Below, in pieces: positions 1 to 47,761 of a stretch of DNA of 64,000 bases. The notes below the pieces were generated by a model, which saw nothing but the letters and a program-made list of their open reading frames with translations, was not told where the DNA came from and did no database searches. Location of the stretch: IMG/VR virus record IMGVR_UViG_3300045988_162923; one strand, given 5' to 3'. Origin of the DNA: a virus. A program made the position numbers and the translations under genes. Numbering within the stretch: position 1 is the first letter of the stretch; every line of letters begins with the position of its first letter.

Positions 1-397
1 ATTGAACTTGGTATTGAAATGTTTGAAATCCTTGATTATTTTTTGTAGGTTCTGTTCTTAATGTAATTTGTTTAGAAGTAGTAATATCTTTAATAGATAT
101 TAACCACATTTTTAAATTCTTATTAACACAGAATAAATAATCAAGCTTAGAATGATTTAATACATTATCATAGATAGAACCTTTTGTTCCTCCAGTTGAT
201 CGTAAATCAATTGAATCATTTTCAGTCTAAGTAGCTTTACACTATACTGTAAAAAACTAATTATCTTTTTCAATAATTAAATCATACCACTAAGTATCAT
301 TAATTGGTAAAGATACTGTATAACCCTAAATAGTAAAATAATTTATTGCCATACTTAATCCAAGTCTACCAATCTATTTTCTGTTAACTTCATTCAT
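1..397 (-). CDS. Hypothetical protein, 5'-partial in window (runs off left edge); contains >=6 in-frame TAG codons (recoded)
   Basis: Minus-strand ATG at 397. Continuous protein-like translation (MNEVNRKQIGRLGLSMAINYF...) only if TAG is read as sense. No standard-code ORF here. Confidence 0.45.
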
Positions 398-538
398 AAC
401 AATTTATCCTTTATACAACCAGTCCGCCGCAATTGACCACTCTGCCACTCTCCCATATAAATAACTTTAGGTAGTTGAACCACACATCCCGAATGAATAT
501 TTTATTTGCCCATTGGATCATTTGTTCTTCTGGCACAA

Positions 539-1777: not shown

Positions 1778-1925
1778 TGGTAGGGCCGGTTGGATTCGAA
1801 CCAACGATTTGGCAATTTGGCCTAAGACGTTAGATTTGAACTTACATCTTTCTTGCGCACAGACTATTCTACCATTTAAACTAGTCTTAGATAAGTTGCC
1901 GGCCTTACCCCTTGGCCACGACCCC
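1778..1925 (-). tRNA. tRNA gene with a ~85-nt anticodon-loop insertion that itself is a CCA-terminated tRNA-like unit (nested tRNA-like element); mature anticodon unresolved
   Basis: Outer tRNA: GGGGTCG-T-GGCC-AAGGGGTAA-GGCC-G-GCAA(c) ... TTGCC-AAATC-GTTGG-TTCGAAT-CCAAC-CGGCCCT-A-CCA. Inserted unit: CTAAGAC...GTAAG-TTCAAAT-CTAAC-GTCTTAG-G-CCA, a perfect 7-bp acceptor-like helix plus T-arm-like hairpin. Confidence 0.45.
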
Positions 1926-2803: not shown

Positions 2804-2889
2804 TGGTGCCGGTGGCGGGACTCGAACCCGCACGGTGTTGCCACCGAGGGATTTTAAGTCCCTTGTGTCTGCCATTCCACCACACCGGC
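2804..2889 (-). tRNA. tRNA-Leu (anticodon UAA), type II with long variable arm
   Basis: Acceptor GCCGGTG/CACCGGC, anticodon stem AGGGA/TCCCT with loop CTTAAAA, long variable arm, T-loop GGTTCGAGTCC, CCA encoded. Confidence 0.7.
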
Positions 2890-2930: not shown

Positions 2931-2959
2931 ATTATATCATAAATTTTTTATAAAATCAA
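2931..2959 (-). promoter_or_regulatory. Consensus promoter TTGATT-17-TATAAT (minus strand), upstream of the His/Arg/Leu tRNA cluster
   Basis: Reverse complement reads TTGATTTTATAAAAAATTTATGATATAAT. Confidence 0.6.
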
Positions 2960-4074
2960 ACAAGATACTTCGTTGTAAAATCAGGAGTATTTTTCTGGAA
3001 AGTAACTTCTTTAATACTCTGAGACTCAGCCTTTTTAATTACAGCCTTGCGCTCATCTTCGTCTTCAATCTGCCAATAATCATCAGGATCAACATAAATC
3101 TTAGTATTTTCACCTTTGATATAAAGCTGTCCATCTCTAAAAGTGATTTTGCTAGGAATAATCGCAAACCGCAATCTATTATCACTCTTAGTATCATATG
3201 CGTCATACCATTCATAAGAAGTCTCAGCCAAATCAATATGACGACCATAAGTTGTATATACTTTACCAGAAGCGAGAGTAACTGTCATATTGAAAGTAAC
3301 AGAACTGCTCTGAGTAATATTAAGATCATTTAGAGTTTCTTCAAGGCTATAACCCTGATTAATTTCAAAAACAATAGCACGCAGATAATCATAAGTCATG
3401 TTAATTGTACGAGAGAAATTAACAATGGAATTAATTACTTCATAATAAGCTGGCAACAACTTATCTTTGAGATATTCTCTAATTTCATTTTCTGTTGGAT
3501 AATTAATCATAAAATGATAATGGAAACGACCGGGACGATTAAGAAGATACTCATTCAACTTACGGGTTTCATTACAAGTAATGACAAAAAGTTTCTTGCC
3601 ATTATCAAGTCCATCGAACAAAGAAAGCATTTCTTCCTGCGGATCACTATGCTCAACTTCGCCAAAAGTCTTTTCAAATTCATCAAAAATAACTACGACT
3701 TCCTGTTCAATAGAGCTAAGAAAATTAGCAATACCCGGAATATATTCATTAACAATGATTACCGGCAATCCATTTTCAATAGCCTTTGCCGCAAGGACGC
3801 GAGCAAATAGAGACTTGCCAATACCTTTCTGACCACTTAAAATAATACCAAAATTACGAGTTGAACACTTATAAGATTTAATTACTTTATTTACTTTTGC
3901 TTCATGATTACCGTAAATCTTTTCTTCATTAATCGACAAATCAGGACGAGAAACCAAGAAAAAGCCAGCCATTTTATTAAAGCTAACTTCAAAAGACATA
4001 GTTGGAAGACGCTTATATGTTTTTACATCTTCACCATAAATTTGAAATCGGCTGCCAGCATTAACAACATTCAT
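2956..4074 (-). CDS. AAA+ ATPase (Walker A GQKGIGKS, Walker B VVVIFDEFEK); standard code
   Basis: 372-aa ORF with no in-frame TAG. P-loop and DExx motifs visible. Embedded between tRNA clusters. Confidence 0.7.
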   Translation of the reverse strand: MNVVNAGSRFQIYGEDVKTYKRLPTMSFEVSFNKMAGFFLVSRPDLSINEEKIYGNHEAKVNKVIKSYKCSTRNFGIILSGQKGIGKSLFARVLAAKAIENGLPVIIVNEYIPGIANFLSSIEQEVVVIFDEFEKTFGEVEHSDPQEEMLSLFDGLDNGKKLFVITCNETRKLNEYLLNRPGRFHYHFMINYPTENEIREYLKDKLLPAYYEVINSIVNFSRTINMTYDYLRAIVFEINQGYSLEETLNDLNITQSSSVTFNMTVTLASGKVYTTYGRHIDLAETSYEWYDAYDTKSDNRLRFAIIPSKITFRDGQLYIKGENTKIYVDPDDYWQIEDEDERKAVIKKAESQSIKEVTFQKNTPDFTTKYLV

Positions 4075-5150: not shown

Positions 5151-5224
5151 TGGTTGCGGTCGGCGGAATCGAACCGCGTCTCCGGGTTATGAGCCCAGTA
5201 TCCTACCGTTAGAAGACCACCGCA
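5151..5224 (-). tRNA. tRNA-Met/fMet (anticodon CAU)
   Basis: Anticodon stem CTGGG/CCCGG with loop CTCATAA, T-loop GGTTCGATTCC, CCA encoded. Acceptor has one mismatch. Confidence 0.6.
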
Positions 5225-5489: not shown

Positions 5490-6169
5490 TGGTCAGCGCA
5501 AGGGGGATCGAACCCCTACATTCTACCTTTGGTGTTAAGTATAAGATTTGAACTTACATCTTTTCGTACTCTTCTTTTAATCGTTTTATATTTTTACCAT
5601 TTGTAGTATCTAATTGTTGATTGCAATTAGGACAAACCCATCGAAGATTTTCTAATCTATCATCATGATTATGACCATTGACATGATCTAAAATCAAAGT
5701 CAGAGGTTTATCCTACCAAAAAGGTTCTTGCCCGCAAATAGAACATATATAAGGAGTATATTCTCCTTGTAAATAATATTTTCTTAATATTTTCTAATCT
5801 GCGGTAGAATTTTCAATAAAGATATTAGATGGATTTCGTTTTATAGGACGTCTATTTCCTAAAGAAAAATGGTCAGTTGATATATTCAACTAATCTATTC
5901 TTTTTCTAATACGAGTTCCATTATCTCCACTATGAGAACTATATCCTAATTTCTTAGCAACTTCTGCCATAGAACCACTGGATATTACAATTTCTTTAAA
6001 CTATTCATTAGTAAAAGTATCAATTTTTGCTGGCATTTTAAAAATCTCCTATCATTTTTTCTATTATATTTGATTTTTAAGACGCCATCCTTAAAAGAAA
6101 GTGTCCAAAATATTCTTCTTAAACTAACCTAACGAAAGGGTAGTGACTATACCTATTTGTCTATGCGCC
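5490..6169 (-). tRNA. tRNA gene split by a ~610-nt anticodon-loop insertion that contains a complete HNH endonuclease gene plus a tRNA-like mini-helix
   Basis: 5' half CGGCGCA-TA-GAC..GTC-A-CTACC-(ctttcgt...) at 6113-6169. 3' half (..ccaaa)-GGTAG-AATGT-AGGGG-TTCGATC-CCCCT-TGCGCTG-A-CCA at 5490-5530. Anticodon stem CTACC/GGTAG and acceptor CGGCGCA/TGCGCTG pair. The loop begins with the same CTTTCGT as the 539-679 insertion-tRNA. Confidence 0.45.
5554..6036 (-). CDS. HNH homing endonuclease (LDHVNGHNHDDRLENLRWVCPNCN), 4 in-frame TAG codons (recoded); located inside the tRNA anticodon-loop insertion
   Basis: MPAKIDTFTNE-Q-FKEIV... with HNH motif H-x-NGHNHDD...N...CPNC. Continuous only with TAG as sense. 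Confidence 0.65.
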
Positions 6170-6238
6170 GTTAAAAATGTGGGACTTTTGGCGGGAGGCT
6201 CCCACGGGACCTCAGCCTTTTGGTGGTGTAAAAGGCAT

Positions 6239-6673: not shown

Positions 6674-6757
6674 TGGTGCTCAGAGTGGGACTTGAACCCA
6701 CACGTCTTTCGACAATCGGGTTTGAGCCGATCGCGTCTGCCATTCCGCCACCAGAGC
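6674..6757 (-). tRNA. tRNA-Leu (anticodon CAA), type II
   Basis: Acceptor GCTCTGG/TCTGAGC (one mismatch), anticodon stem ATCGG/CCGAT with loop CTCAAAC, long variable arm, T-loop GGGTTCAAGTCCC, CCA. Confidence 0.65.
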
Positions 6758-7087: not shown

Positions 7088-7165
7088 TACCATTACCTCA
7101 TTTGGATTCGAACCAAAAACTCCACCCTCTACTGGGCGGCGTGTTTCCATTACACCATAAGGCTT
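7088..7165 (-). pseudogene. tRNA-like sequence with intact T-arm but unpairable acceptor/anticodon stems and no U33 (probable tRNA pseudogene or non-canonical tRNA)
   Basis: T arm TTTGG-TTCGAAT-CCAAA present. Anticodon region CAGTAGA/AGTAGAG ambiguous. No CCA. Confidence 0.25.
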
Positions 7166-7230: not shown

Positions 7231-7306
7231 TGGTACCGGCGAAAGGACTCGAACCTTCAGATTAATGATCCTAAATCATTCGCCTATGCCATTCGGCTAC
7301 ACCGGT
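7231..7306 (-). tRNA. Type I tRNA with anticodon UAG (would decode CUA, a Leu codon, despite lacking the long variable arm of bacterial tRNA-Leu)
   Basis: Acceptor ACCGGTG/CGCCGGT (one G-U), anticodon stem AATGA/TCATT with loop TTTAGGA, 5-nt variable region AATCT, T arm GAAGG-TTCGAGT-CCTTC, CCA encoded. Confidence 0.55.
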
Positions 7307-7989: not shown

Positions 7990-8065
7990 ATTACGCTGCT
8001 CTACCACTTGAGCTATCGTTTGTAAATTAATACGCACGAGTTGGACTCGAACCAACAACACACGG
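7990..8065 (-). ncRNA. Two juxtaposed tRNA fragments in non-cloverleaf order: a 3' half (T-arm + acceptor 3' strand, 8040-8065) followed by a 5' half-like piece (acceptor/D-arm AAACGATAGCTCAAGTGGTAGAGC, 7990-8030)
   Basis: T arm GTTGG-TTCGAGT-CCAAC-TCGTGCG on the minus strand directly after promoter and leader. D-arm consensus GCTCAAGTGGTAGAGC follows it. The two pieces cannot pair as one tRNA. Confidence 0.3.
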
Positions 8066-8126
8066 ATTACCAATCAATTTAAAAAATTAAAATTGCTGTA
8101 ATTGTCTTTCTTTATCTTACATATAT

Positions 8127-8271: not shown

Positions 8272-8343
8272 TTCCAGAGCGTGGATTTGAACCACGGTCT
8301 TCAGGATTTTACTCTGATAGGCTATCCTCTACCCCACTTCGGA
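8272..8343 (-). tRNA. tRNA, anticodon unresolved (loop AGTAAAATC; 4-bp anticodon stem)
   Basis: Acceptor TCCGAAG/CTCTGGA (one mismatch), T arm CGTGG-TTCAAAT-CCACG. No encoded CCA. Confidence 0.45.
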
Positions 8344-8475: not shown

Positions 8476-9435
8476 TCAATATCTATCATAGTCTGTATAA
8501 GGAATTCTTAATAAAGGAATATTATTTTTTTTACAATATTTATCCTTCATTTTATCATGTTCAATAACTTTATCTGTATGCCATATACTTGATTGATTAA
8601 AATGCTATTTACCATCATATTCAATTAATTTTAAAACTTTTCCGTTATGATCTAAAATAGCAAAATCAAATCGTAAATAATTTTTATCTTTTAAATCATT
8701 AAAAGTATATTCCTAAATAAAAGAAATATTATTATTTATTAAAATTTTTTTTATTAAATTTTCTCCTAATGAATTCCCTATGCATCCACAGGACTAAGTA
8801 AGTCCCTATAATAGGCTTGATTGCCGAATACTTTTAATATTTCCACAATCACATTGACATACCCAATATGCCTTGTCTTTTTGTTCTTCATCTTTATGTA
8901 GAGCAATTAATTTACCGAATCTTCGTCCAACTAAATTTAATCTTTTAGATTGAATTCCTAAAGGCTAAATATTTTCTATCATATTTATTTTTGCTTTTTC
9001 TTTCTATAAACATCCACAAGACTGAGTATGTTCTGATTTTAAAGATGAAGTAGTAACATTTACAATATTTCCACAGTCACATTTACATTCCCAATAAGAA
9101 GCAGTATTATTTAATTCTTTTCGCTTTAAAATAGTATATTCTTTATTAAAAGATAATACTGTTAATTTACCAAATTTTTGTCCCGATAAATCATCATAAA
9201 AGCTCGGATTATCTTTACGATTTCGATTAATATTTCCTTTTAAACGATTCTCTTTTCCTAAACAACCGCAAGATAAAATTTTTCCATTACGCAAATCAGC
9301 ACCACGAATATTTTTTATTATCCCACAATCACACTAGCATTTCCATAAAAGCTTATTAGAATTATCATGTCCAGCTTCTTCTAAAACTATTAATCTACCA
9401 AAACGCTAATCTATTAAATTTATTTTTTTACCCAA
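8476..9435 (-). CDS. Homing-endonuclease-like protein: three Zn-ribbon repeats (RFGKL..W.C.CDCGN..SCGC) + C-terminal PD-(D/E)XK / DUF559-like nuclease domain (RFDFAI..IEYDGK-Q-HF); TAG-recoded; start approximate (TTG at 9435)
   Basis: ORF-track fragment 9004..9294 is the middle repeat. Full reading frame continuous with TAG=Q. TAG sits at the Q of the DGKQH motif, which is CAA in the paralogue at 22523-23323. Confidence 0.6.
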
Positions 9436-9448
9436 AAATAGACCTTCT

Positions 9449-9500
9449 TTCTGTTCTTCTTTTAATATTATTAAGAAATCTACTTAGAAGAAGAACAGAA
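9449..9500 (-). terminator. Hairpin (12-bp stem TTCTGTTCTTCT/AGAAGAACAGAA) + U-tract on minus strand; terminator after gene 9511-9807
   Basis: Perfect inverted repeat seen in sequence, followed on the minus strand by TCTATTTTT. Confidence 0.45.
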
Positions 9501-31890: not shown

Positions 31891-32201
31891 ATGGGCGGAT
31901 TGTCTAAATGGGCCGCGCTTTAAAAATGCTTTTTTTTAATATTATAACAAATTTTTTTAATATTGTCAAATGCCGGGCATATGATATAGTACCGATCGGC
32001 GCCCTGCGGGGGGCATCACTTTCGGGAGAACCAGGTCGCATATGGAGGCCACTGGATTGAGCAAAAATTTTCCATATGGGATAAAGGATCGGGAATTCGG
32101 TCCAACACCTCCGGCGTCGGCCCGCTAAACTATCCCTTATAAATATTGTACCACCCCAGGTCGCATTTGTCAATAGGCAAAATGAACAAAAAAAAGAGGG
32201 G

Positions 32202-32363
32202 TTATTCCCCCTCTTTTTCTCGCCGCTCTTTTTCCATTTCCGCAAGACGTCTGCGACGCTCCTTTTCTTCTTCCTCGCGTCTCCGGGCATTTCGTCGCAT
32301 GGTATTCATAGCAGTCGTACAAGCGACTTGAGTAGCAATCATAGCGCCTACATTGATAATCAT
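32202..32363 (-). CDS. Small Arg/Glu-rich peptide (53 aa)
   Basis: RBS GGAGGTAAAAAAATG. MIINVGAMIATQVACTTAMNTMRRNARRREEEEKERRRRLAEMEKERREKEGE. Confidence 0.35.
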   Translation of the reverse strand: MIINVGAMIATQVACTTAMNTMRRNARRREEEEKERRRRLAEMEKERREKEGE

Positions 32364-32375
32364 TTTTTTACCTCC

Positions 32376-32657
32376 TTAACAATCATAGGTGAAACAACCG
32401 GCGTAAGGGTCAAAGCCCTCATCGCTGTCAATGTCATCTGGTTCATCATCTTCATCAAGTTCATCAGGTTCATAAGCCAGAAAGAAAATTTTTGCGCCTT
32501 CATGTTGAGCTGCGAGGTCACGAGCTTCCCCGTAACTCGCACACGGCACACCCGCAAAAGTTCCGTCTCCCTTAACAACTGCCCACCGCACATCAGTCCA
32601 GTCAAAATTTTTCATGTTATCAGTTCCTTTTCTCTTGGATTGTCTATAGTATAGCAC
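32376..32657 (-). CDS. Hypothetical protein (~85 aa from internal Met), acidic C-terminus
   Basis: ORF from the track. The first ~8 codons of the track ORF are probably 5'UTR (promoter 32648-32676). Confidence 0.45.
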   Translation of the reverse strand: MLYYRQSKRKGTDNMKNFDWTDVRWAVVKGDGTFAGVPCASYGEARDLAAQHEGAKIFFLAYEPDELDEDDEPDDIDSDEGFDPYAGCFTYDC

Positions 32658-32676
32658 AAAAAGGGGCTTTTGTCAA
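32648..32676 (-). promoter_or_regulatory. Consensus promoter TTGACA-17-TATACT (minus strand), GC-rich-module type
   Basis: Reverse complement reads TTGACAAAAGCCCCTTTTTGTGCTATACT. Confidence 0.5.
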
Positions 32677-32686
32677 GCCCCTTTTT

Positions 32687-33274
32687 TCAAAATGGCAAAT
32701 CTTCTTCGTTGGAAAGTGTGGAATTGTAGTCGCTGGTAATTTCAGGAATGTCGATGAAATTTCTGGAAGCAATGTAATCCGCAAGATGGACAAGCCTGTC
32801 AATATTTGTAAAAGGTCTGTCCTCGCGGTCGGTACTCCATTGCCCCATGTGGGATTTAATGGCTTGCGTGAGCAGAAACGGAGCAGGTTCGTCAAAGTAT
32901 TCGCACCAGGCAGAATCTACCAATTTTGCGGCATTTGCGGCATGGTTGGGATATTCTTCCTTGTCAAAATCTTCTAAACCGTATTTTGCGGTATCGTGAC
33001 AGATACAAGCGACACGCGCAAGGTCTTTATATTCGTCTTTCATGTAAGCCCACTGAGACATTCTCAAAAGTTCTTCACAGAACGCGCAAACGGCTTTAGT
33101 GTGCCGAACTAGACCACCTTCGCCCTGAGAAAAAACAGGATGAAATTTTCCAGAACTTGAAGCGCCGATTTTCCAGAAATAGGACGGAACTTTTTCGTCA
33201 AGATAGAACTTAACGAACATTCGCAAATCTTCACTTTCGATCTGGTCGATTTCCTTGGAAAAATATTCAAACAT
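32687..33274 (-). CDS. HD-domain phosphohydrolase (CICHDTAKYG ... HLADYIASR)
   Basis: 195-aa ORF. H...HD...H...D metal-binding pattern of the HD superfamily. Confidence 0.6.
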   Translation of the reverse strand: MFEYFSKEIDQIESEDLRMFVKFYLDEKVPSYFWKIGASSSGKFHPVFSQGEGGLVRHTKAVCAFCEELLRMSQWAYMKDEYKDLARVACICHDTAKYGLEDFDKEEYPNHAANAAKLVDSAWCEYFDEPAPFLLTQAIKSHMGQWSTDREDRPFTNIDRLVHLADYIASRNFIDIPEITSDYNSTLSNEEDLPF

Positions 33275-33328
33275 ACGCTTTACCTTTCTGCGGTTGGTTG
33301 GGTTGTCCGCTCCCTTAACTGTATAGAC

Positions 33329-33357
33329 ATTATACCATACAAAAAAGCCGTTGTCAA
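33329..33357 (-). promoter_or_regulatory. Consensus promoter TTGACA-17-TATAAT (minus strand)
   Basis: Reverse complement reads TTGACAACGGCTTTTTTGTATGGTATAAT. Confidence 0.5.
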
Positions 33358-33412
33358 GCCTAACTTTTCCGCAGTTTTTGCCTAGGAAAAGGGCGATTTC
33401 TCGCCCTTTTTC

Positions 33413-33817
33413 TTAACTTTTTGGCTTTCTTTTCTGCGTGAGCGTCAATTCGTAGCAATTTTCACCAACTTTGAACGCAATCATGCGCTCTTTGTTCGTA
33501 ATTTCCACGTTTTCGCACGCATTTTCGCTGTTTTCAGCCAAAAAAGTTGCTAATTCCGCGATAATTCCGGCTTTAGTCGGATTTTCTTTGCGCTTGCGCT
33601 GGTCAAATTTGTAATTTGTCGGCACTTTGCGCGTTCCCGCGTTCATATATTTTTTAGCTTCTTTTTCCTGTTCTGGTGGCAAGTCAAACTCAACACGTTC
33701 ACCCTTGTCGATAGCGCGGTCGGCTTCCCACACGCTTTCCGCTTCTTCCTGCGTCCAGCCCATGAGCTTCATATTTTTGTCAATCCACGCCTGTTTGTCT
33801 TTTTCCTTTAATGCCAT
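33413..33817 (-). CDS. Hypothetical protein (134 aa); paralogue of 38668..39024
   Basis: Shared block FDLPPEQEKEAKKYMNAGTRKV / FELPPELEAGAKKARQTGTRKV. Confidence 0.5.
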   Translation of the reverse strand: MALKEKDKQAWIDKNMKLMGWTQEEAESVWEADRAIDKGERVEFDLPPEQEKEAKKYMNAGTRKVPTNYKFDQRKRKENPTKAGIIAELATFLAENSENACENVEITNKERMIAFKVGENCYELTLTQKRKPKS

Positions 33818-33869
33818 TTAATTCCACCTTTCTTCTGGATGGGGCGGATTGCTCCGCCCCGATTGGCAA

Positions 33870-34310
33870 TTACTGGTGAATACGGAAATAAGCTTTCCGC
33901 TTTTCCTCAACGCGGTCGAGCGTGCCATCCTTTACCATCTGCCGGACGATAGCAGAAACACGCTGGTTCGTCAGGTCTACGATTTCCGGAACGGACTTAA
34001 TCAGTTCCGTGATAGTGAACAGACGGGTCGGCTCTGCGGACATCACCGCCGCAATCGAGGTCTTGAAACCGTCGTTCGCCACCTGCGTGGCAGTCGGCTT
34101 CTTGTCAGCCGCGTTCTTCTTGGAAAGCAGTTCCAGCTCATGGTCGATGAAACCGATAACTGCGTCATAGTTGTCCGCGGTCTGCGGATACGCTTCACGG
34201 AGAATGTTGAAGTAGTCGCGCTTGGTCAGCTTGGAAGTAGTCTTAGTCATAGTATCAATTCCTTTCTGGTTTTTTAGTGTGTCCTTCACTTGATGAATAT
34301 ATTGTATCAC
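33870..34310 (-). CDS. Putative DNA-binding protein (~125 aa from internal Met MTKTTSKL); paralogue of 39068..39469
   Basis: Shared KKPTATQ.ANDGFK......LFTITELIKSVPEI.DLTNQRVSAIV.QMVK.G.L. Confidence 0.5.
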   Translation of the reverse strand: MIQYIHQVKDTLKNQKGIDTMTKTTSKLTKRDYFNILREAYPQTADNYDAVIGFIDHELELLSKKNAADKKPTATQVANDGFKTSIAAVMSAEPTRLFTITELIKSVPEIVDLTNQRVSAIVRQMVKDGTLDRVEEKRKAYFRIHQ

Positions 34311-35253
34311 AAACCTTGCGATTTGTCAATACCTAACTTGAATTTTTTTTGCCATCCTATCAGCCGCTACCTTCCAGCAAATGGTAGCTGTTGGTTCACA
34401 TTTATATCCCGCAACAATAGGACTCCGTGCGGAAGATTCTAACGAGAAAGTCTTACATCGCTCTCATGGGCTACGGTCATATTCACCGTTGCTTTCTCTC
34501 TCTTTTGTACCCTCATTGTATCACATCTGAGGGGCTTTGTCAAGAGGAAATTTTCAATTCCCAAAAATTTTTTTCGCCCCTTGGGAACTCTCCATTCCCT
34601 CTTGACATTATGTAGTATAACAGATACGCCTTAAAAAGTCTATTGGCAAAATGACGAAAATGGGATAAAATAAAAAGATTATTTTGTATAACTTTTCTCT
34701 TGACAAATTGCTGGCGGGGTGGTATAATGGAAATTCGGCGCCTCACATACGTGGGCGCCGCGCCCAAAAATTCCCAAGTAAAAAGGCGAAAAAAGTTGAG
34801 GAAATTTATTCCTCAACTTCGCACGCGGTTTCCAGAAGTCGGCAGAGCATGATAATATCATAAAAGTCAATACCTTCCAGTTCTTCTTGCCAGCAGAAGC
34901 AACCGCAGTATTCACCATTGACATTTACTGGATAGCAGCACCAGTTATTTTCAATTTTACGGACTTCGTTCATCTCAGGTGGAAAATAATGTTTCTTTGG
35001 TTCAGTGTTCCAATAGCTGATTGGCATACCGTCTGCCCCATACAGGGCAAACGGTTGACAATAATCTTCACACCACTTTCTCACAACTTTTATGAAAAAT
35101 TCCATTTTTAACCCTCCACCAGATTTTCCCTGATAAATTCATCATCTTCATAGAAGAATTCGCCCCATGAAAATTTACAAATCCAAAGGGCTTCATAATG
35201 GTCCCACTGGACAGCTTGGGCGATGTAACCGCCCTTTCTGAACTTTTTCCCTT

Positions 35254-35529
35254 TCATGCGTTAAAATCCTTCTTTCCATCAAGAATTGCTTCAATTTCAG
35301 AAGTGGTTAGGCGGTCAACCTTTTCTTCAATCTCGTGAAGAATTACTCCATCATCTCCACAAATTTCATCGGTGATGTTCAGCCATCCATTGTAGATGTG
35401 AAGCAGGACAAAATCACCAGATTCAACTGTTGCGCCACAACAACCGCAAATGATTTCGTCTCTGTCCTGATTCCAAATGCCGCTACAGACATTGCCCTCG
35501 TTGTCCATGAAAATAACCTGTTTATTCAT
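35254..35529 (-). CDS. Small Cys-containing protein (~91 aa; true start at second Met, MNKQVIF...)
   Basis: The track ORF starts MIYQKKGIDTM. The first 10 codons are the conserved 5'UTR (AAAGAAAGGAATTGATACA-ATG) shared with 37292..37573. Confidence 0.45.
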   Translation of the reverse strand: MNKQVIFMDNEGNVCSGIWNQDRDEIICGCCGATVESGDFVLLHIYNGWLNITDEICGDDGVILHEIEEKVDRLTTSEIEAILDGKKDFNA

Positions 35530-35583
35530 TGTATCAATTCCTTTCTTTTGATAAATCAATTATACCATACCACAGAGGCTTTG

Positions 35584-35988
35584 TCAAGCCTCTGTGGAAA
35601 ATTTATTTTTAATTTCATTTAGTTTTTCATGTTCTTCAATCCAGTATTTCCATGTTCCGTACCCATCTTCACAGAAATAATACAATCCGGGCGAATTAAA
35701 TACACCATTGATAATTTTAACAGGCTTTTCATAGCCCATTTCTTCAAAGAAATCATCAATAAATTGCGCGTCCGCATAGCTGTTAACGCGGATTGCCCAA
35801 ATACAATCAGGATCAGTATTGGAATTAAATGCCAGTAAATTTCCTGCCCGATTATAGATTTTCAAGCGGTTATCATCATCCGCCATTAAATCATTATAGC
35901 GGCAACCCCACTCATGACGGCGGCAGTCATCATAATCGTCAAATTCCTGTCCGCAATAATCGCACTTATAAATATTCAATTCTGTCAT
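35584..35988 (-). CDS. Hypothetical protein (134 aa) with N-terminal CxxC..C..C zinc ribbon
   Basis: ORF from the track. CDYCGQEFDDYDDCRRHEWGC. Confidence 0.45.
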   Translation of the reverse strand: MTELNIYKCDYCGQEFDDYDDCRRHEWGCRYNDLMADDDNRLKIYNRAGNLLAFNSNTDPDCIWAIRVNSYADAQFIDDFFEEMGYEKPVKIINGVFNSPGLYYFCEDGYGTWKYWIEEHEKLNEIKNKFSTEA

Positions 35989-36826
35989 GGTATCAATTCC
36001 TTTCTTTATTGTATAATTATTATAACATATTTTTATTTATTTGTCAAGCCGGTCGGGAATTTCTTTTTTATAATTTTCCCTAACCGGCTTACGCTTATTT
36101 CTCCCAAATGTCTTGTGCCAACCAGAAGAAACCAGTTCTTAAACGGGACTGAATCTCAAAAAGGTTATCACTCAGCTCTTGGATGTCCTCGCGGTCATCT
36201 TCAGCCGCGTCCTTTTTAGTAGCCGCAACATCTTCAGATAACTGAAGAATTTCTTCGGCAATTTTATTAAGTCTTTCAGCAATACTATTTGTCATTGTTC
36301 ATTCTCCTTACTTGTTCTCTCTTGGAACAATTATAGTATAACAAGTATCGGGAAAAATGTCAACTGTCATTTTACACAAATTTTGCCCGAAAAAATTGTG
36401 TAATGTGTTTAAAATCTAAAAATCCTCGCGCTTGGGCCGTGGGCGCGAGGCTGAAAGATTAACAGATTTTTAAAAAATCCAGAGAGCATAACCCTCTGGA
36501 TTTTATTTTTAGCCGTCAACATAAATAATAAGGGTATTGTCTTTGGTTTTCAAACCAGTAACAGGCAATCCCAATACCCATTCTTCGCTTGCGTCCAGAA
36601 GGTCTCCATTCAAGGTCATGCGGCCTTTGCGGTTTTTGAGATAGCGACCACAGGTATTTTCATTTATCACTTCAACGCCATTTCCATCATAAAACATCAG
36701 CGCTCCTTTTACAGTGCCGATTACATTTTTAATCATGCTCAAAGTCATTTTTATCAATTCCTTTCTTTTGATAAATAAATTATAGCACAAGAGGTTGATT
36801 TTGTCAAGCCCCTTGTGCTATTTTTT

Positions 36827-37279
36827 TTAACGTTCAGATGCGATACTAAGATATCGAACAATCATGTCCATTTCGCAACCCATGTCCTGCTGGTCGCAAA
36901 CCGCATAACCCACAAGGTCGCCGTCCGCACAAATCGGATAAACGCCATAAGTGTTATTGAAAACAAACGGCTTTCTTTTAAAATCCCACTGGGTCGAAAC
37001 ATAAGGCGGAAAGTTTTCCATACCACGCAGTTTTACGGTAGTGTCATAGATTGCGATGGGACGCAGACCAGAATTTGATGCCATTGTAATGGCAACCCGC
37101 AGAGCTTCTTCGGTCAAAGAACCAAGTACTGAATACCTCTTAAAGCAAACACAGTTATCATCTTCAATAAAGATTTCAAGAGGGTCTCCCTCGCGAATCT
37201 TCAAACTACGGCGGATTTCTTTCGGAATAACAACACGTCCAAGGTCATCAATTCTGCGAATAATGCCAGTTGCTTTCAT
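36827..37279 (-). CDS. AbrB/SpoVT-family transition-state-regulator-like protein (N-terminal swapped-hairpin DNA-binding domain GIIRRIDDLGRVVIPKEIRRSLKIREGDPLEIF)
   Basis: Textbook AbrB/SpoVT N-domain motif. 150 aa with extra C-terminal domain. Confidence 0.6.
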   Translation of the reverse strand: MKATGIIRRIDDLGRVVIPKEIRRSLKIREGDPLEIFIEDDNCVCFKRYSVLGSLTEEALRVAITMASNSGLRPIAIYDTTVKLRGMENFPPYVSTQWDFKRKPFVFNNTYGVYPICADGDLVGYAVCDQQDMGCEMDMIVRYLSIASER

Positions 37280-37291
37280 TGTACTTCCTCC

Positions 37292-37573
37292 TTAAAGATA
37301 AATAGTGCCTTGATCGCAAGCAGGCGGATTCAGTCTATCTACTGTAATATCAGTTTCTGCGTTCTGACCATCTTTATCTTCATACTCGACATGGAATGTC
37401 AAGTCTCCAACATTATCCAGATAGTCCTGAATAGCCTTGACGATTGTGTTCAGATATTTTCTTTCTTTGGCTTCATCTCTGTCTTGCTGTTCTCTGTAAG
37501 CAAGACCAATCAATGTGGCGATTTCTCCATCAGTCAAGCCTTTCAACATTTCTTCCATATTATTATCTAACAT
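37292..37573 (-). CDS. Small acidic protein (~93 aa; start at second Met)
   Basis: Same conserved 5'UTR + RBS as 35254..35529. Promoter 37603-37631. Confidence 0.4.
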   Translation of the reverse strand: MLDNNMEEMLKGLTDGEIATLIGLAYREQQDRDEAKERKYLNTIVKAIQDYLDNVGDLTFHVEYEDKDGQNAETDITVDRLNPPACDQGTIYL

Positions 37574-37602
37574 TGTATCAATTCCTTTCTTTTGATAAAT
37601 CA

Positions 37603-37631
37603 ATTATATCATATAAGGGCTTGTTTGTCAA
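37603..37631 (-). promoter_or_regulatory. Consensus promoter TTGACA-17-TATAAT (minus strand)
   Basis: Reverse complement reads TTGACAAACAAGCCCTTATATGATATAAT. Confidence 0.5.
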
Positions 37632-37885
37632 GCCTTTAAATTAAATTTTCTTCATAAAGCATTTCGCCTTTACTCCATCGTTGAAAATGTACATTCATAA
37701 GCTCCAGGTGTCTTTCATAATAATCGGCATCAGCAGGGTTCTCAAAATCATGCTCTATAACTACACCTGTCTTATCGTTAATCATACGAATAACTTCACC
37801 CTGATAAATTGGCTTATCCATAATTAGCACTCCTTTCTTTTGATAGCCCTATTATATCACAATAGGGCTATCTTGTCAACTCTTA

Positions 37886-38323
37886 TTATTTGATAGATAC
37901 GCAGTTAATACCGCGATCTTTAATCCATTCAATGAAATCTTCACCGCTGAGATTTTTTGCCAAATCTTCCATAGTAGGATGAACTTCACTAAATTTGTAA
38001 GTAATTGTAACCGGCTTGTAATTTTTCCAACTAAAAGTATAAATCTCAAAGCCAATTGCAGCGCGGACGCGAGGTTTTTTAAGGAAAAGCGTTTGTTGTA
38101 CTTCCAGACAAGGGATGGTATATTCATCCAGCAAATCCAAAAGGTCACCAAATGATTTACAGTAAAATTCGCGATCTTGCGGCTTCTCATCTCTAACAAG
38201 CAGATTATAGCCCCGCCATGTTAAAAGTTTGCTTTCTTCTTTGCCCCAATCCATAAAAATATTCATATCATAAATCTTTTTCATTGTGTTAATCCTCCAT
38301 CCAATCTTTAATTCTTTCAGCAC
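37886..38323 (-). CDS. Hypothetical protein (145 aa)
   Basis: ORF from the track. Confidence 0.45.
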   Translation of the reverse strand: MLKELKIGWRINTMKKIYDMNIFMDWGKEESKLLTWRGYNLLVRDEKPQDREFYCKSFGDLLDLLDEYTIPCLEVQQTLFLKKPRVRAAIGFEIYTFSWKNYKPVTITYKFSEVHPTMEDLAKNLSGEDFIEWIKDRGINCVSIK

Positions 38324-38667
38324 AATCTATACAATCAATGTCTCTTTCATCACACTGAGAATACAGTGGACAACAAGCGCAATCATTAAATGTCTCAACC
38401 CAACTTTCCAAGCACTCAGTTAGACGCTCGGTATTTACTTCAATGTTCATTAGGTGTTTCCTCCCTTAACCTTGTACCAACATTATAAAGCTTTTTGGGA
38501 GAAAAGTCAACCGTCAAAATACACAAAAAATGTGCGGAAAATTTGTTGAATGTTACTCTTGACAAAAATGACGCGCCCACTGGATTGTGGTCGCGCGGCC
38601 GAATTTCCATCTATTTCCAAATAATTTGGGTAAAAAAATTCCTCCCATTTTTTGGGAGGAACTTTTG

Positions 38668-39024
38668 TCATTTTCTGGGGCAAGCCAACGTCAGCCGGTA
38701 CTTTTTACCATTGTAAGTAAATTCCATTTCTCGCTCTGGATTTGTAATGGTAATGTTATCCAAATCCAAATCGGGGTAGGCGTCTTCCAAAGAGCTTTCC
38801 AAATACTGGATGAGTTCGCGCTTGTCCTCGTCGGGTTTGCGCTCTCGTTTAACCTCTGTGACCTTGCGCGTTCCAGTTTGTCTTGCCTTTTTCGCTCCTG
38901 CTTCAAGCTCCGGCGGCAATTCAAACAACTTTTCACCGCGGTCAATGCGTTTGTCGTCCTCTTGGACTTGTCGCGCTTCATCGACTGAAATATTCAACCG
39001 CTTGGCGAGTTCTTCGACTGTCAT
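38668..39024 (-). CDS. Hypothetical protein (118 aa); paralogue of 33413..33817
   Basis: See 33413..33817. Confidence 0.5.
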   Translation of the reverse strand: MTVEELAKRLNISVDEARQVQEDDKRIDRGEKLFELPPELEAGAKKARQTGTRKVTEVKRERKPDEDKRELIQYLESSLEDAYPDLDLDNITITNPEREMEFTYNGKKYRLTLACPRK

Positions 39025-39067
39025 TTTTTACCTCCTTTCGGAAGTGGGGGCAAAAGCCCCCATCCGG

Positions 39068-39469
39068 TCACGCCACCTTGAAGAAAGCCTTTCTCTTGTC
39101 GTCAACACGGACAAGGCTTCCAGCCTTTACCATCTGACCGACAATCGCGCTGACGCGCTGGTTGGTCAGGTCGGCAATCTCCGGCACGGACTTAATCAGC
39201 TCAGTGATAGTGAAAAGCTGGTCAGGGGTCATGCCCATGTGGGCAAGAATCGCGGACTTGAAGCCATCATTGGCGAGCTGGGTCGCAGTCGGCTTCTTTT
39301 CGGCGCTGTTCTTCTTCGCCAGCAGTTCGAGTTCGTGGTTAATGAAATCCACGATAGTCTGGTTGGACTGGACTTCGTTCATCTGGAGCAGAGCGGTGAA
39401 GCAATCCTTCTTAGTCATCTTAGTAGCCATAATATCAATTCCTTTCTGGTTTTTCAGTGTGTCCTTCAC
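39068..39469 (-). CDS. Putative DNA-binding protein (~120 aa from internal Met); paralogue of 33870..34310
   Basis: See 33870..34310. Duplicated two-gene cassette. Confidence 0.5.
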   Translation of the reverse strand: MKDTLKNQKGIDIMATKMTKKDCFTALLQMNEVQSNQTIVDFINHELELLAKKNSAEKKPTATQLANDGFKSAILAHMGMTPDQLFTITELIKSVPEIADLTNQRVSAIVGQMVKAGSLVRVDDKRKAFFKVA

Positions 39470-39613
39470 TTGATGAATTTATTGTATCACAAATCTTTCG
39501 ACTTGTCAATACCTTTTTAAGATTTTTTTTCGTATCCTTGGGGAGAAGTTCATCTCCCCTTGGAACATTTACATTGTATCACACTTTGCGGCGATTGTCA
39601 AGCGTTAATTTTC

Positions 39614-40120
39614 TCAGCCGACAATTTTTTTCAGAGCCGCGATTTCCTTGGAAAGCTGTTCCAGCTTTTCCTGCTTCTTACAGAGGGCAATTTTCCACTC
39701 AGTCACGCGGTTACTCAGATACTTTTCATAGGCTTCCGGGTTGAACTGGTAATAATACCGCTTACAGGTAATTGTTTCCACGTCGCGGTATTCGATGTGG
39801 ATACCGCCTGCCGCCTTGGTAATCATTTCCTGAACAGACTGCGGCAGAGCCTTGAAATCGTTCAGCTTCATGATACTTTCATTGTTGGCGTTCAGAACGT
39901 ATTCCGCGCCATAGCAAGAATCAACTTCTTTTTCAAAAGTTTCAGTCTTGACGATGGTTACAATGTGATGATTTTCAAGAGTGCTGAGAAGTGCCATACC
40001 CTTGGGGCGGTTAGTGTTGTATTCCTTGGAGGTAAAGGGGTTAGTGCCAAAGAGTTCCTTAACGCGGCAAACAGCTTCGGCGAGGTTAGCGGCATCGGTA
40101 AAGTTAATTCTAGTCATGGT
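39614..40120 (-). CDS. Hypothetical protein (~168 aa from MTRINFTD...)
   Basis: Track ORF 39614..40288. The upstream part is probably UTR (conserved KKGIDTM leader). Confidence 0.4.
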   Translation of the reverse strand, partial: TMTRINFTDAANLAEAVCRVKELFGTNPFTSKEYNTNRPKGMALLSTLENHHIVTIVKTETFEKEVDSCYGAEYVLNANNESIMKLNDFKALPQSVQEMITKAAGGIHIEYRDVETITCKRYYYQFNPEAYEKYLSNRVTEWKIALCKKQEKLEQLSKEIAALKKIVG

Positions 40121-40184
40121 ATCAATTCCTTTCTTAATTTCTGTATTGATTATATCACATTCGGTCGGGTTTGTCAAGTGGTTT

Positions 40185-40844
40185 TTACCACTTGGGGAAC
40201 ATTTTATTTTCGTGGCAATTCCACTGGTGGCAGTTTTTGGTAAAGCGCTTATGGAGCGAATAGCACTTAACAAAAATTGCCATTTCATTCAGTGCGTCAG
40301 AAAGCGCGGTGTGTTCTTCTTCAAAGTCGGGGTTTCTGGTGATGTAGGCATAGACCGCTTCAACACCTGTTGCGCAAGACCTACCGCCATTCTTAGAACG
40401 CATACCATGTTCATGGCAGAATTTGTCAAAGCCTTTCTGGTGCGTGATGGTCTGTAAAGCCATCAAATAAAGGTCGATAAACTCAAATTCGTCCAGAAGC
40501 GCGGCAAAAGGTGTCTTAATGAAATCAAAACAGCTATTGTATGCCATAACATACTTTACACCATAGAACCGGCAGAGGTTGCGTACAATGGACACGGCTT
40601 CGGCTTCGGTAGTTACCGCAGAAATTGTGCCATTTATCAGACGGGCTTCATAGACCGGAAAATGCTTCTTGGCATAATCGTCTTTGTTGATGTTGTCATA
40701 ATGTTCCATGATGAGGATGGAAGTTGTTGCCAAAATGTTACCATCCTTGTCGTGAATGACAGCACCCGCGTTATACATTCCGGTCGGGTTAGAACTGCCA
40801 CCGACTGTCTCAGTGTCCAACGTACAGTAGATATTTTTGTTCAT
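40185..40844 (-). CDS. DnaQ-like 3'-5' exonuclease (DEDDh: CTLDTETVG / AYNSCFDF / HTALSDALNEMAI)
   Basis: 219 aa. Exo I-III motifs recognisable. Confidence 0.6.
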   Translation of the reverse strand: MNKNIYCTLDTETVGGSSNPTGMYNAGAVIHDKDGNILATTSILIMEHYDNINKDDYAKKHFPVYEARLINGTISAVTTEAEAVSIVRNLCRFYGVKYVMAYNSCFDFIKTPFAALLDEFEFIDLYLMALQTITHQKGFDKFCHEHGMRSKNGGRSCATGVEAVYAYITRNPDFEEEHTALSDALNEMAIFVKCYSLHKRFTKNCHQWNCHENKMFPKW

Positions 40845-41333
40845 TTTTGGTAATTCCTTTCTTTTGGATGGGGCTTACCATCGTTTCCCCTATCCTTAAT
40901 TTCTGTATTGATTATAGCACATCAGGAGCTGTTTGTCAAGAGGAAATTTTATTTTTTTTTACACACGAACCGCGGAAGTTGTGTAGCCCAGCTAATGATA
41001 CCAAGCACTTTTAATCGCTATTCCCTCTTGACATTATAAAGTATATCACATGATGGGCGATTTGTCAAGAGGTTTTATATATTTTTTCAAGAAATCTTAT
41101 CTCAAAATGAGCGTATAACGTTTCTTTCCTCTTGACATTATAGAGTATATCACATTTCAGGATTTTTGTCTATTGGCAAAATACACAAAAATCCGCTCAA
41201 AAAATTAGTGAACATTCCCTCTTGACAAAATGGCGCGGCCACACAATCGTGACCGCGCGGCTGTCATTTTACAACTATTTCCAAAAAATGAATCAAAAAA
41301 AATTGGGAATCCAGATTTTGGATTCCCATTTTT

Positions 41334-41624
41334 TCAATCAATAGGAAGCGAATTGTAAGAAACGGGAGAAACAGTAATACCAACATTTGACTTCAACAAG
41401 AACTTGGCATCTTCTCCGATGTAATCAAAACTGTAAACAGCCCATTCCGTTTCAATATCTTCATCATCCAGCATCAGATTTTGCCAAGCTGGGTTAACAG
41501 CGGCAACCTTGTCAAAAATTGTCTGGACTGCTTCTTTTGCTTTTTCAAATGTGTCAAATGCACAATCCAAGTCTGTAAAATCAGCTTCTTCAAAATGAAC
41601 TACCCAAATAATCTTTGTTTCCAT
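41334..41624 (-). CDS. Small acidic protein (96 aa)
   Basis: ORF from the track. Confidence 0.4.
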   Translation of the reverse strand: METKIIWVVHFEEADFTDLDCAFDTFEKAKEAVQTIFDKVAAVNPAWQNLMLDDEDIETEWAVYSFDYIGEDAKFLLKSNVGITVSPVSYNSLPID

Positions 41625-41639
41625 TTTTTGTCAATCCTT

Positions 41640-41891
41640 TCAGAGTTCAGTAATATAATTATCTTCCATTGTCCAGACGGCACACAGATTATCGAATGAA
41701 AAATCTTTATCCATTTTTTTAAGTTTATTTCCGATATCTGTCAAAAAATTTTCGATATTTTCATCAAAATATATGTCTTCTTCTTCTGATGTTCCATCGA
41801 CATGATTACCATAATCTTCCATTGGCTTCCATTTATCATCAACTTCTACTTCAACTGGAACACATTTCGTGACATAAGCGATAAATTTCAT
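41640..41891 (-). CDS. Small acidic protein (83 aa)
   Basis: ORF from the track. Confidence 0.4.
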   Translation of the reverse strand: MKFIAYVTKCVPVEVEVDDKWKPMEDYGNHVDGTSEEEDIYFDENIENFLTDIGNKLKKMDKDFSFDNLCAVWTMEDNYITEL

Positions 41892-41906
41892 TTTTTACTA
41901 ATCCTT

Positions 41907-42161
41907 TCACATTTCAAAAATTGAATTTCCATTTACTGTATCTACGCACAATCCATCATAGGGAAATTCTGCCCGAATTTCTTCAAGAAACTCTGAAGCA
42001 AATTTATTGTAATAGTCAACTGCTTCATCTGGAGCATCATAAAATTCTGGATATTTTTCACAATCGCTTACCAGTTTATCCCATTTTCTATCAACTTCAA
42101 TTTCTTTTTCAATTCTTGCCGGATAAGACACAATAACTTTCATACCATCACCCCAAGGCAA
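41907..42161 (-). CDS. Small acidic protein (84 aa)
   Basis: ORF from the track. Confidence 0.4.
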   Translation of the reverse strand: MPWGDGMKVIVSYPARIEKEIEVDRKWDKLVSDCEKYPEFYDAPDEAVDYYNKFASEFLEEIRAEFPYDGLCVDTVNGNSIFEM

Positions 42162-42433
42162 TCAAAATTTTAATATCGGTCGCTTCTTCCATCAAGATTT
42201 CAAGCTGTTCGTCATTCATCTGTTATCCCTTCCTTTTTTCCCCAAGTGATAATTTTTGTGTAAGACTTTAATCCGAACATAAGTTTTTTCATGTCCAGAA
42301 TAAACAGGTCAGCGTCTCGTTCTGTGCGGAACTCTAATGTATTGCTATAATACAATCCCCTTTTATCAAAACCTGAATATTTGACAATAATATTTTTAGG
42401 AACCATTTTCTTATTTCCTTTCTTTGGAAGCGC

Positions 42434-42910
42434 TTAGCGCGCTTCCAGAATATTCCGCAGGATTTCAATGATATTTTCTTTTGTGGGGTCGATTGCTTCA
42501 CCAAGCGTCCAAGCGTTCCGCACTCGCGCATCATCATCGAAAATCAGTGCTGTTCCATCTTCTGGAAGTTCCCGCTTGACTACCTGATGTTTCGGTGTTC
42601 CATACTTGACTCCGTGGAAATGGTCAAAGGGAAAATCATGATTGCTCAGCCATTCTTTTTTTGCTTCTCTCACCGCTTTATCATAGTCGGGAGTGGAAAC
42701 CTTGCTCAGCCAAGTTACAACGGAAATTTCAATCCCGATAACGCGACACTGAGAAAGCAGGTTGGCAAGTTCTGCCATGTCGGTTAGAGGTTCTGCGATT
42801 TTATACGGGGTCGGGTCGGATGTTCTCAGCATTTCCAGCCAGTTCTCAACGCCATACAGGTCAGCGATAGTTCCATCCATGTCGAACACGATTTCTTTAA
42901 TCATTTTTTT
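42434..42910 (-). CDS. HAD-superfamily hydrolase / 5'(3')-deoxyribonucleotidase-like (FDMDGTIADL motif I); start probably at internal MIKEIVFDMDG
   Basis: Track ORF 42434..43180. Motif I DxDGT plus C-terminal FDDD motif typical of HAD phosphatases. Confidence 0.5.
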   Translation of the reverse strand, partial: KKMIKEIVFDMDGTIADLYGVENWLEMLRTSDPTPYKIAEPLTDMAELANLLSQCRVIGIEISVVTWLSKVSTPDYDKAVREAKKEWLSNHDFPFDHFHGVKYGTPKHQVVKRELPEDGTALIFDDDARVRNAWTLGEAIDPTKENIIEILRNILEAR

Positions 42911-43091
42911 TTCATTCCTTTTCGTTTTTGTATCTTGATTATAACACGCTTTTGCTTGTTTGTCAAGAGCCAGTTTTGAATTTCTGCGATATTTCCGCAC
43001 GAATTTTTTTCTCAGTTTGTTGTCAGGTTTTACACAGCGGGGACAATTTAAGTCCCACGCTGTAAAATCCTTACAAGTCCCTTTTTTCAGA

Positions 43092-43406
43092 TCATCCATG
43101 GAAAAAGCCCCGGATAATCTTTTCAAATGCGGGTTTGTAGTTTTCGGTCCAACGGCGCTCAAGTTCGGAGTTAGTGCCATTCACATAAGCGTCCCACTCG
43201 ATAGCGCCAAGGGCGTTGTGCTCGAACAGTTCGGCATCAGTAGGCATAGTCTCAGCAAAAATCAACTGCTGTTTGATATAAGCGTCAATAGTGAAGTTCT
43301 TCATTGTAATTACCTCGTTCCTTAACTTTGTACCCTTATTATACACCCTATTATTCTCTTTGTCTATTGGCAGAATACACAAATTCGGGATCAAATATTT
43401 TTTCAT
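43092..43406 (-). CDS. Hypothetical protein (104 aa)
   Basis: ORF from the track. Confidence 0.4.
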   Translation of the reverse strand: MKKYLIPNLCILPIDKENNRVYNKGTKLRNEVITMKNFTIDAYIKQQLIFAETMPTDAELFEHNALGAIEWDAYVNGTNSELERRWTENYKPAFEKIIRGFFHG

Positions 43407-43579
43407 TTTTGTTCAATTTTTCGCTTGACAAAATGGTTAGCCGGTGTTATAATGGAAATACCGGGGCTGGCAAACGTCGGCGGGCGGCCGCAAATCCTTT
43501 ATCCTTTAATTATAGCATACTCAGTTGAAAATGTCAATAGGCAAATTAAATAAAAATTAAAGCCCATTTGGGCTTTAAT

Positions 43580-46051: not shown

Positions 46052-46080
46052 ATTATAGCACGTTAAGTGCTAGTTGTCAA
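46052..46080 (-). promoter_or_regulatory. Consensus promoter TTGACA-17-TATAAT (minus strand)
   Basis: Reverse complement reads TTGACAACTAGCACTTAACGTGCTATAAT. Confidence 0.5.
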
Positions 46081-47643: not shown

Positions 47644-47761
47644 AGTGAATACCTCTTTTCTTTACTGTATCTATAGTATAACACATTGCGGGAAACTTGT
47701 CAAGGGATAATTTTACACAAAAAGCACAAAAGATTTTTGTGACATTTGTATAATACGCAAA

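Follow-up and report, generated by a model that had tools for sequence, protein, structure and literature searches.

The tRNA gene at 7231-7306 is very likely a functional leucine tRNA of type I, which would be charged with leucine and read the codon CUA, and the recoded TAG would be read as glutamine by a separate tRNA(CUA) that very probably lies to the left of the window (the whole stretch of DNA analysed here, 64 kb in length).

Fold and anticodon of the tRNA at 7231-7306

The preliminary description of this DNA had reported a clean cloverleaf (arm AATGA/TTTAGGA/TCATT, 5-nt variable loop) with the anticodon 5'-UAG-3', pairing with CUA rather than with the recoded UAG, and had proposed tool-based folding as a check. 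Fold and anticodon were both borne out by the sequence and by ARAGORN, which assigned the same anticodon as the first reading. The Rfam tRNA model RF00005 (gathering score 29) matched the minus strand at 7234-7306 with 61.4 bits (E = 1.4e-11). The gene reads ACCGGTG TA GCC G AATGGCATA GGC G AATGA TTTAGGA TCATT AATCT GAAGG TTCGAGT CCTTT CGCCGGT A CCA and comprises an acceptor stem of 7 bp, a D-stem of 3 bp with a large D-loop, an anticodon stem of 5 bp, and a canonical T-arm (Table 1). The anticodon loop is UUUAGGA, with U33 and G37, and the discriminator is A73; the first pair of the T-stem is G.U, and one U.G pair occurs in the acceptor stem. Minimum free energy folding (z = -1.7) returned no cloverleaf and weak z-scores for either strand, and is thus uninformative for this tRNA. 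The evidence for it is the covariance-model score together with the covariation seen among relatives, and the gene is a genuine tRNA, well above chance.

An amber suppressor carries the anticodon 5'-CUA-3', whereas the tRNA-scoring strand of this gene has UAG. The reverse complement of a cloverleaf is again a cloverleaf and that of UAG is CUA, which is why a plus-strand gene with the loop UCCUAAA could be taken for the missing suppressor. Such a misreading of the strand is vanishingly improbable, since the plus strand gave neither an Rfam tRNA match at E <= 1 nor an ARAGORN call, and a gene read from it would have C33 and lack both a GTTCRA T-loop and CCA. The minus strand, on the other hand, offers U33, GGTTCGAGTCC, A73, and CCA within an array whose genes all lie on one strand.

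Table 1. Features of the tRNA array in the window, with positions, strand, and the basis of each assignment.
Feature	Position	Strand	Basis
Type I tRNA-Leu(UAG) gene with a short variable loop, 76 nt with the encoded CCA	7231..7306	-	ARAGORN, Rfam, covariation
Anticodon 5'-UAG-3' of this gene (plus strand: CTA), between U33 and G37	7271..7273	-	ARAGORN, anticodon at position 34
5-nt variable loop AAUCU of this gene, last nt U48 being the partner of A15	7259..7263	-	Sequence
Type II tRNA-Leu(CAA), 84 nt	6674..6757	-	ARAGORN
Type II tRNA-Leu(UAA), 86 nt, third leucine tRNA in the array	2804..2889	-	ARAGORN
5' half of tRNA-Tyr(GUA)	421..455	-	First 35 nt identical to the uninterrupted Tyr of L001
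Insert in the anticodon loop of Tyr-GUA, >420 nt, running off the left window edge	1..420 (gene 1-455)	-	Comparison with L001
Gln-UUG with a 66-nt anticodon-loop insert (extra Rfam tRNA match)	about 539-679 (Rfam 542-679)	-	Comparison with L001; Rfam
Trp-CCA-like tRNA with a 73-nt anticodon-loop insert	1778-1925	-	Insert removal or uninterrupted allele
Glu-UUC, split by a 604-nt anticodon-loop insert	5490-6170	-	Insert removal or uninterrupted allele
Extra Rfam tRNA match in the array	5155-5223	-	Rfam

Conservation and leucine identity

An ATPase gene within the array (2956-4074) was used to retrieve 52 related viral loci together with their tRNA arrays, and 16 distinct tRNA(UAG) of 75-77 nt, from these loci and from the contig L071, were aligned. 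The variable loop has the same length in all 16 and is free of gaps. Standard pairs occupy 98.1% of the cloverleaf pair cells, as against 34.9-48.9% in a control with the 3' partners slid by 1-3 columns, and compensatory changes on both sides occur in 18 of the 20 pairs. U8, A14, A15, G18, G19, U33, the anticodon UAG, A38, U48, the T-loop positions, and A73 are invariant in all 16 sequences. Further distinct members of the family, obtained with a pattern that set no condition on positions 73 or 48, carry A73 in 227 of 228 cases and U at position 48 in 225 of 228.

Leucine identity in E. coli is set by A73 together with U8-A14, A15-U48, G18-U55, and G19-C56 (PMC2377443, PMC6614811). In Aquifex it depends on A73 and the tertiary core, and removal of the variable arm chiefly reduces affinity (PMC2377443). 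A comparison of identity elements, suggested earlier as a way to tell leucine from another synthetase, gave a clear outcome: the leucine set of bacterial LeuRS is completely present in the gene at 7231-7306 and is invariant in the alignment. Moreover, when 794 distinct tRNAs of the relatives were compared without anticodon loop and variable region, leucine tRNAs filled most of the top ranks, and the closest tRNA beyond the short-armed group was a type II Leu(UAG) (L024). Judged by its conserved positions and covariation, the gene is a leucine tRNA of type I that is under selection.

It could be argued that this is a decaying tRNA-Leu gene which has lost its extra arm and is out of use. The array does contain damaged or odd members (a tRNA with an 8-nt loop at 7093-7164, a Phe(aaa) with mismatches, and the insertion-bearing tRNAs), and the two G-U wobble pairs in the T-stem and acceptor stem of the gene would suit decay. 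Yet decay is very unlikely in view of the compensatory changes and invariant tertiary positions among the 16 relatives, and because cultured phages and chromosomes, as well as at least 120 viral contigs, have the same architecture. The gene also differs from its copy in the close strain L001 (described below) at two pairs, 1:72 (G.U in L001, A-U in the window) and 6:67 (U-A in L001, U.G in the window), and both positions remain paired in both copies.

Meaning of CUA and TAG

In some of the genes of this phage, TAG is read as sense. Its terminase (52999-54759), portal (55129-56826), and other late genes on the plus strand are open only with TAG read-through, and when TAG is translated as Q, the first two match the PHROG families for terminase and portal over their full length. 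Terminases of the Enterococcus phages EF1, VRE9_4, and H1, of Geobacillus virus E3, and of the code-15 phage Phass-1 share 44-52% identity with that of the window, which indicates a Firmicute-type host. A megablast search with 24 kb of the window against GenBank phages gave no match, indicating that there is no close cultured relative, and blastn with the tRNA at 7231-7306 against the same phages likewise gave none. As for the hallmarks of code 15, in-frame TAG occurs in essential late genes and aligns with Gln, and a phage tRNA(CUA) was found in strain L001 only.

The meaning of the two codons was read from window proteins aligned with homologues from 73 related loci, leaving out matches of more than 85% identity and counting the majority residue at sites covered by at least three homologues. 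Leucine was the majority residue at 22 of 28 CTA sites, and at 209 of 309 TTA, 82 of 113 CTT, and 44 of 62 TTG sites. Glutamine was the majority residue at 29 of 63 TAG sites, with 52 of 115 for CAA and 33 of 59 for CAG. These residues imply that CUA means leucine and TAG glutamine; for CTA, this meaning holds whether the codon is decoded by the tRNA at 7231-7306 or by a host tRNA-Leu.

In yeast mitochondria, tRNA-Thr(UAG), likewise of type I, reassigns CUN codons to threonine. By the same route, the short-armed tRNA(UAG) of the phage might accept a different amino acid in place of leucine, giving CUA or all CUN codons a new meaning. A type I body with a leucine anticodon is what such a tRNA would be expected to look like, and the phage already recodes TAG. 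Sense-codon reassignment is extremely unlikely here, however. The codon alignment of window proteins with homologues in 73 loci gave no sign of it at CTA sites, which align with leucine as often as do the other leucine codons. A73, A14, A15-U48, and the leucine-type 3-bp D-stem with large D-loop are conserved, the nearest relatives are leucine tRNAs, and the tRNA is interchangeable with type II Leu(UAG) at the same slot (in the contigs L070 and L071, see below). The mitochondrial tRNA-Thr(UAG) differs from the window tRNA, whose body is leucine-like and whose codon CTA aligns with leucine.

One part of the genome stands apart in composition. The block at ~32000-50000 has a G+C content of 38-46% vs ~30% elsewhere, many short minus-strand ORFs, and hardly any in-frame TAG; it is probably an early-gene block. 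A search for TGA recoding within this higher-GC block (32-50 kb) revealed no convincing long ORFs joined by TGA.

The slot in the tRNA array and exchange of cassettes

ARAGORN at default settings found 19 tRNA genes between 976 and 8343, all on the minus strand. Together with two extra Rfam matches, the Trp-like tRNA, the split Glu, and the half Tyr, the array holds more than 20 tRNA genes. A 'tRNA-Stop(tta)' at 8031-8122 and YrlA-like matches appeared at relaxed thresholds only, with low scores, and were not counted as tRNAs. Besides the gene at 7231-7306, which is the sole clear CUN reader, the array encodes the type II tRNAs Leu(CAA) and Leu(UAA); the D-arm of Leu(CAA), GCG-GAATGGCAGA-CGC, resembles that of the UAG tRNA, GCC-GAATGGCATA-GGC.

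The gene order Trp-Asn-Leu(tag) is common to the window and to relatives that have a Leu(tag) of 83-85 nt. The metagenome contigs L070 and L071 share 100% and 98% identity in the 300-nt flanks of the slot, but the slot contains an 85-nt type II Leu(UAG) in L070 and a 77-nt type I Leu(UAG) in L071. The latter is 92% identical to the window gene, while the tRNAs of L070 and L071 share only 63.5% identity. As far as flanks and slot content can tell, type I and type II Leu(UAG) are swapped as equivalent cassettes. The canonical type II tRNA-Leu(UAG) resembles the window tRNA in its anticodon, A73, 3-bp D-stem, GAAU(U)GGCAGA-type D-loop, A15-U48, and array position, and differs in having a variable arm of 13-17 nt where the window tRNA has 5 nt.

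The short arm might itself be an adaptation, by which a functional leucine tRNA would escape recognition by type II-specific toxins or enzymes of the host, or otherwise outlast the host tRNA-Leu. Type I leucine tRNAs are indeed frequent in phage and mobile tRNA arrays and replace type II copies as cassettes, and tRNA arrays have been discussed as possible anti-defence systems (PMC12803027). We nevertheless consider this explanation quite unlikely: no defence system directed at the arm of tRNA-Leu came up in our analysis, type II Leu(UAA) and Leu(CAA) persist in the same array, and many Actinomycetota carry a type I gene as a single chromosomal copy for which no phage-defence argument is needed.

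Several other members of these arrays are peculiar in their own right. The neighbouring tRNA-like gene at 7093-7164 (minus strand) has an 8-nt anticodon loop, CAGUAGAG, and was called '?(Tyr|Leu)(gtag)' by ARAGORN with an Rfam score of 37.5 bits. It has a Gln/Glu-like D-arm and an A1.A72 mismatch in the window, which is a U1-A72 pair in L001. Other tRNAs with 8-nt loops (taaa, taga, tgtt) occur in relatives at conserved places adjoining tRNA-Met. At 8272-8343 (minus strand), a tRNA with the anticodon AAA (Phe, A34) and two A.C stem mismatches scored 42.6 bits with Rfam; a Phe tRNA with A34 is unusual, and the gene may be degenerate. Furthermore, a tmRNA with the tag peptide DNNYFDSHMAA or similar lies between tRNA genes in the arrays of L011, L012, L013, L015, L017, and L024.

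The amber suppressor probably lies beyond the window edge

The preliminary description had noticed no tRNA with a CUA anticodon, and this holds for the entire window: neither ARAGORN in default, relaxed, and intron modes nor Rfam over all 64 kb found one, and a scan of the window for hairpins consisting of a stem, a NUCUARN loop, and a stem had its sole match within a tRNA in a D-arm. Three whereabouts had been considered for the suppressor, i.e. outside the window, in an insertion-containing tRNA after processing, or in the host. The insertion-containing tRNAs can be discarded, as removal of the inserts, or comparison with uninterrupted alleles, identifies them as Gln(UUG), Glu(UUC), Tyr(GUA), and Trp(CCA), none of them CUA.

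The first of these places is supported by a close strain, IMGVR_UViG_3300045988_151351 (L001), which is ~97% identical to the window across the array. Past tRNA-Pro, its gene order is Gln(ttg), Tyr(gta), Val(tac), and then a 75-nt tRNA(cta) at L001:15696-15770, which fits a glutamine-type amber suppressor by its U1.C72 mismatch, G73, and loop CUCUAAA. A suppressor encoded by the host is not needed. The match between window and L001 stops exactly at the Tyr anticodon, from where an insertion extends to window position 1. Because the cut of the window falls inside this Tyr insertion, the rest of the array, including the suppressor, would lie outside. A Gln-like tRNA(CUA) thus very probably sits to the left of the window, after Tyr and Val and at a distance of a few hundred bases to ~1 kb, a position taken from a close strain whose array differs from that of the window by several insertions. 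An exact 40-mer of the window had no match in IMG/VR, so that the sequence to its left was visible in L001 alone.

Amber suppressor tRNA-Gln(CUA) are known from code-15 phages such as Phass-1 and crAss-like phages (PMC10607447, PMC9523058). They are found in the same arrays as the type I leucine tRNA, one of them in L001, but are characterised by the CUA anticodon, G73, an unpaired 1:72, and a Gln-like body, none of which the window tRNA has.

Suppressor tRNA(CUA) occurs in relatives in two forms (observed in L009, L011, L013, L021, L024, L028, L036, L039, L044, L046, and L070), a normal one of 70-77 nt and one of 88-97 nt with a long insertion in the variable region. The longer form keeps the Gln-like ends, with position 1 unpaired, G73, and the loop CUCUAAA, and represents a class switch opposite to that of the arm-less leucine tRNAs; in L009, both forms are adjacent. 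The short suppressors nearest to the window phage (L001:15696-15770, L071:1949-2021, L073:1269-1341) have an unusual T-loop, NUCGRCA, with G, C, or A replacing U at position 54.

Insertions and endonuclease-like ORFs in the array

Of the four inserts that interrupt tRNAs in the window, three are missing in L001, the strain with ~97% identity. The three that lie completely inside the window have in common a closing stem of 7 bp, a 5' motif (TAGTTTAAATGG or TAGTATAAAGA), and a 3' hairpin resembling a T-arm (GTAAGTTCAAATCT...), and are thus mini-tRNA-like in shape; a similar 5' motif, GTATAAAGGA, occurs in the Tyr insert, which is truncated by the window edge. Rfam gave no match to group I or group II introns on the inserts, and those of 66-73 nt are too short for a group I ribozyme. 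The two long inserts contain ORFs in which TAG is read as sense. The ORF in the Tyr insert (2-397) encodes a PD-(D/E)XK endonuclease (PF11645 PDDEXK_5, 58.9 bits), and the one in the Glu insert (5554-6036) is HNH-like with a weak score. The mobile element at 1-426 was also found in four other phage contigs in a metagenome scan.

Two further ORFs within the array, both on the minus strand and containing TAG, are free-standing. The one at 1929-2525 adjoins the insertion-bearing Trp-like tRNA and has HNH motifs (Pfam HNH 21.9 bits, HNH_3 23.2 bits). The other, at 8476-9483, has eight in-frame TAG codons and repeated CxCxCG motifs.

Distribution of short-armed leucine tRNAs

The distribution of this tRNA was assessed with the pattern GGMAKA-N9-YTTAGRA-N13-RGTTCRA, which combines a Leu-type D-loop, a YUUAGRA anticodon loop, a 5-nt variable loop, and the T-loop. 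Across IMG/VR it occurred in at least 120 contigs, and all matches listed were Leu(tag) of 69-79 nt according to ARAGORN, mostly within tRNA arrays. Using one genome per bacterial species, 114 of 120 among the matches listed were such tRNAs. Dense tRNA arrays (Nostoc, Microcoleus, Acidobacteriota, Kribbella, and others) contain about half of the bacterial matches listed, and 44 are single genes; among the first 60 bacterial loci inspected, the single genes all come from records named as Actinomycetota or after a family or genus of that phylum, or from a MAG with an identical tRNA sequence.

Short leucine tRNAs are also present in cultured phages. Escherichia phage mistaenkt (MN850587.1) has Leu-tag of 77 nt and Leu-caa of 78 nt, and Mycobacterium phage BeanWater (MF919494.1) has Leu-cag, Leu-gag, and Leu-caa of 74-76 nt, all annotated as tRNA-Leu; short tRNA-Leu genes were likewise seen in Cronobacter, Vibrio, and Streptomyces phages and in Lactobacillus phage LP65. 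Phass-1 (OQ749652.1) carries Leu-tag (77 nt) and Leu-cag (78 nt) in type I form within an array at 96-115 kb, the first 50 kb of its genome being free of tRNAs. The short tRNA-Leu genes of mistaenkt, BeanWater, and Phass-1 share with the window gene their architecture, A14, A15, U48, A73, and the setting in a phage array, but their similarity to it is below the reach of blastn. Phass-1, moreover, likewise reads TAG as Gln, and its terminase shares 44% identity with that of the window.

The preliminary description had called a bacterial leucine tRNA without the long arm unusual. This is true of textbook bacteria but overstated in general: such tRNAs are common in phage arrays, bacterial arrays, and Actinomycetota, and a study of Streptomyces coelicolor describes one of type I (PMC6614811). 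That Streptomyces paper was the only one located; we found no published description of type I tRNA-Leu in phages. By its matches across these collections, the tRNA at 7231-7306 belongs to a known but little-discussed kind that is common in phage arrays, and is no oddity of one genome.

Expression, charging, and decoding

The tRNA at 7231-7306 would be transcribed together with the remaining minus-strand array and then trimmed at its 5' and 3' ends, the CCA being encoded. The host LeuRS would charge it by recognising A73 and the elbow and core (U8-A14, A15-U48, and G18G19 with U55C56) instead of the anticodon. Through U34 it would decode CUA and CUG, and perhaps the whole CUN box. It would have no role in reading the recoded TAG, which a separate Gln-like tRNA(CUA) would read as glutamine.

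We infer charging by the host LeuRS from the precedent of S. coelicolor, in which a single LeuRS leucylates both types, including a type I tRNA-Leu whose variable loop is 5 nt long (PMC6614811). On the other hand, E. coli LeuRS and one Streptomyces LeuRS failed to charge the type I tRNA-Leu(CAA) of S. coelicolor (PMC6614811). Bacterial LeuRS therefore does not take every type I tRNA-Leu, and acceptance by the host is not to be assumed. The S. coelicolor tRNA-Leu(CAA) is alike in its 5-nt variable loop, its coexistence with type II tRNAs served by one LeuRS, and the importance of U8-A14. It differs in its anticodon (CAA vs UAG here) and at position 48, the last of the variable loop, which is C there and an invariant U facing A15 in the phage family. 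Moreover, A73 is no identity element in the S. coelicolor tRNA but is invariant in the phage family, and the S. coelicolor gene is chromosomal in a high-GC actinomycete, while the window gene sits in a phage array. Felix O1 group phages of E. coli carry type I tRNA-Leu, though E. coli LeuRS reportedly charges type II only.

Implications

A broader and more speculative idea is that phages and mobile arrays favour arm-less leucine tRNAs since these would be invisible to toxins, nucleases, or nucleotidyltransferases recognising type II tRNAs. We regard this as unlikely; if true, the type I copy would sustain CUN decoding during infection, and the cassette swap between L070 and L071 would be a trace of selection.

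For the phage itself, two apparent anomalies of the genome disappear: the tRNA with the UAG anticodon would be an ordinary leucine decoder, and the lack of a suppressor an effect of the window edge. Annotation by anticodon gives the correct isotype for the gene at 7231-7306, and a short variable loop alone is no sign of codon reassignment. The textbook rule that tRNA-Leu of bacteria and phages is always of type II often fails in phage tRNA arrays.
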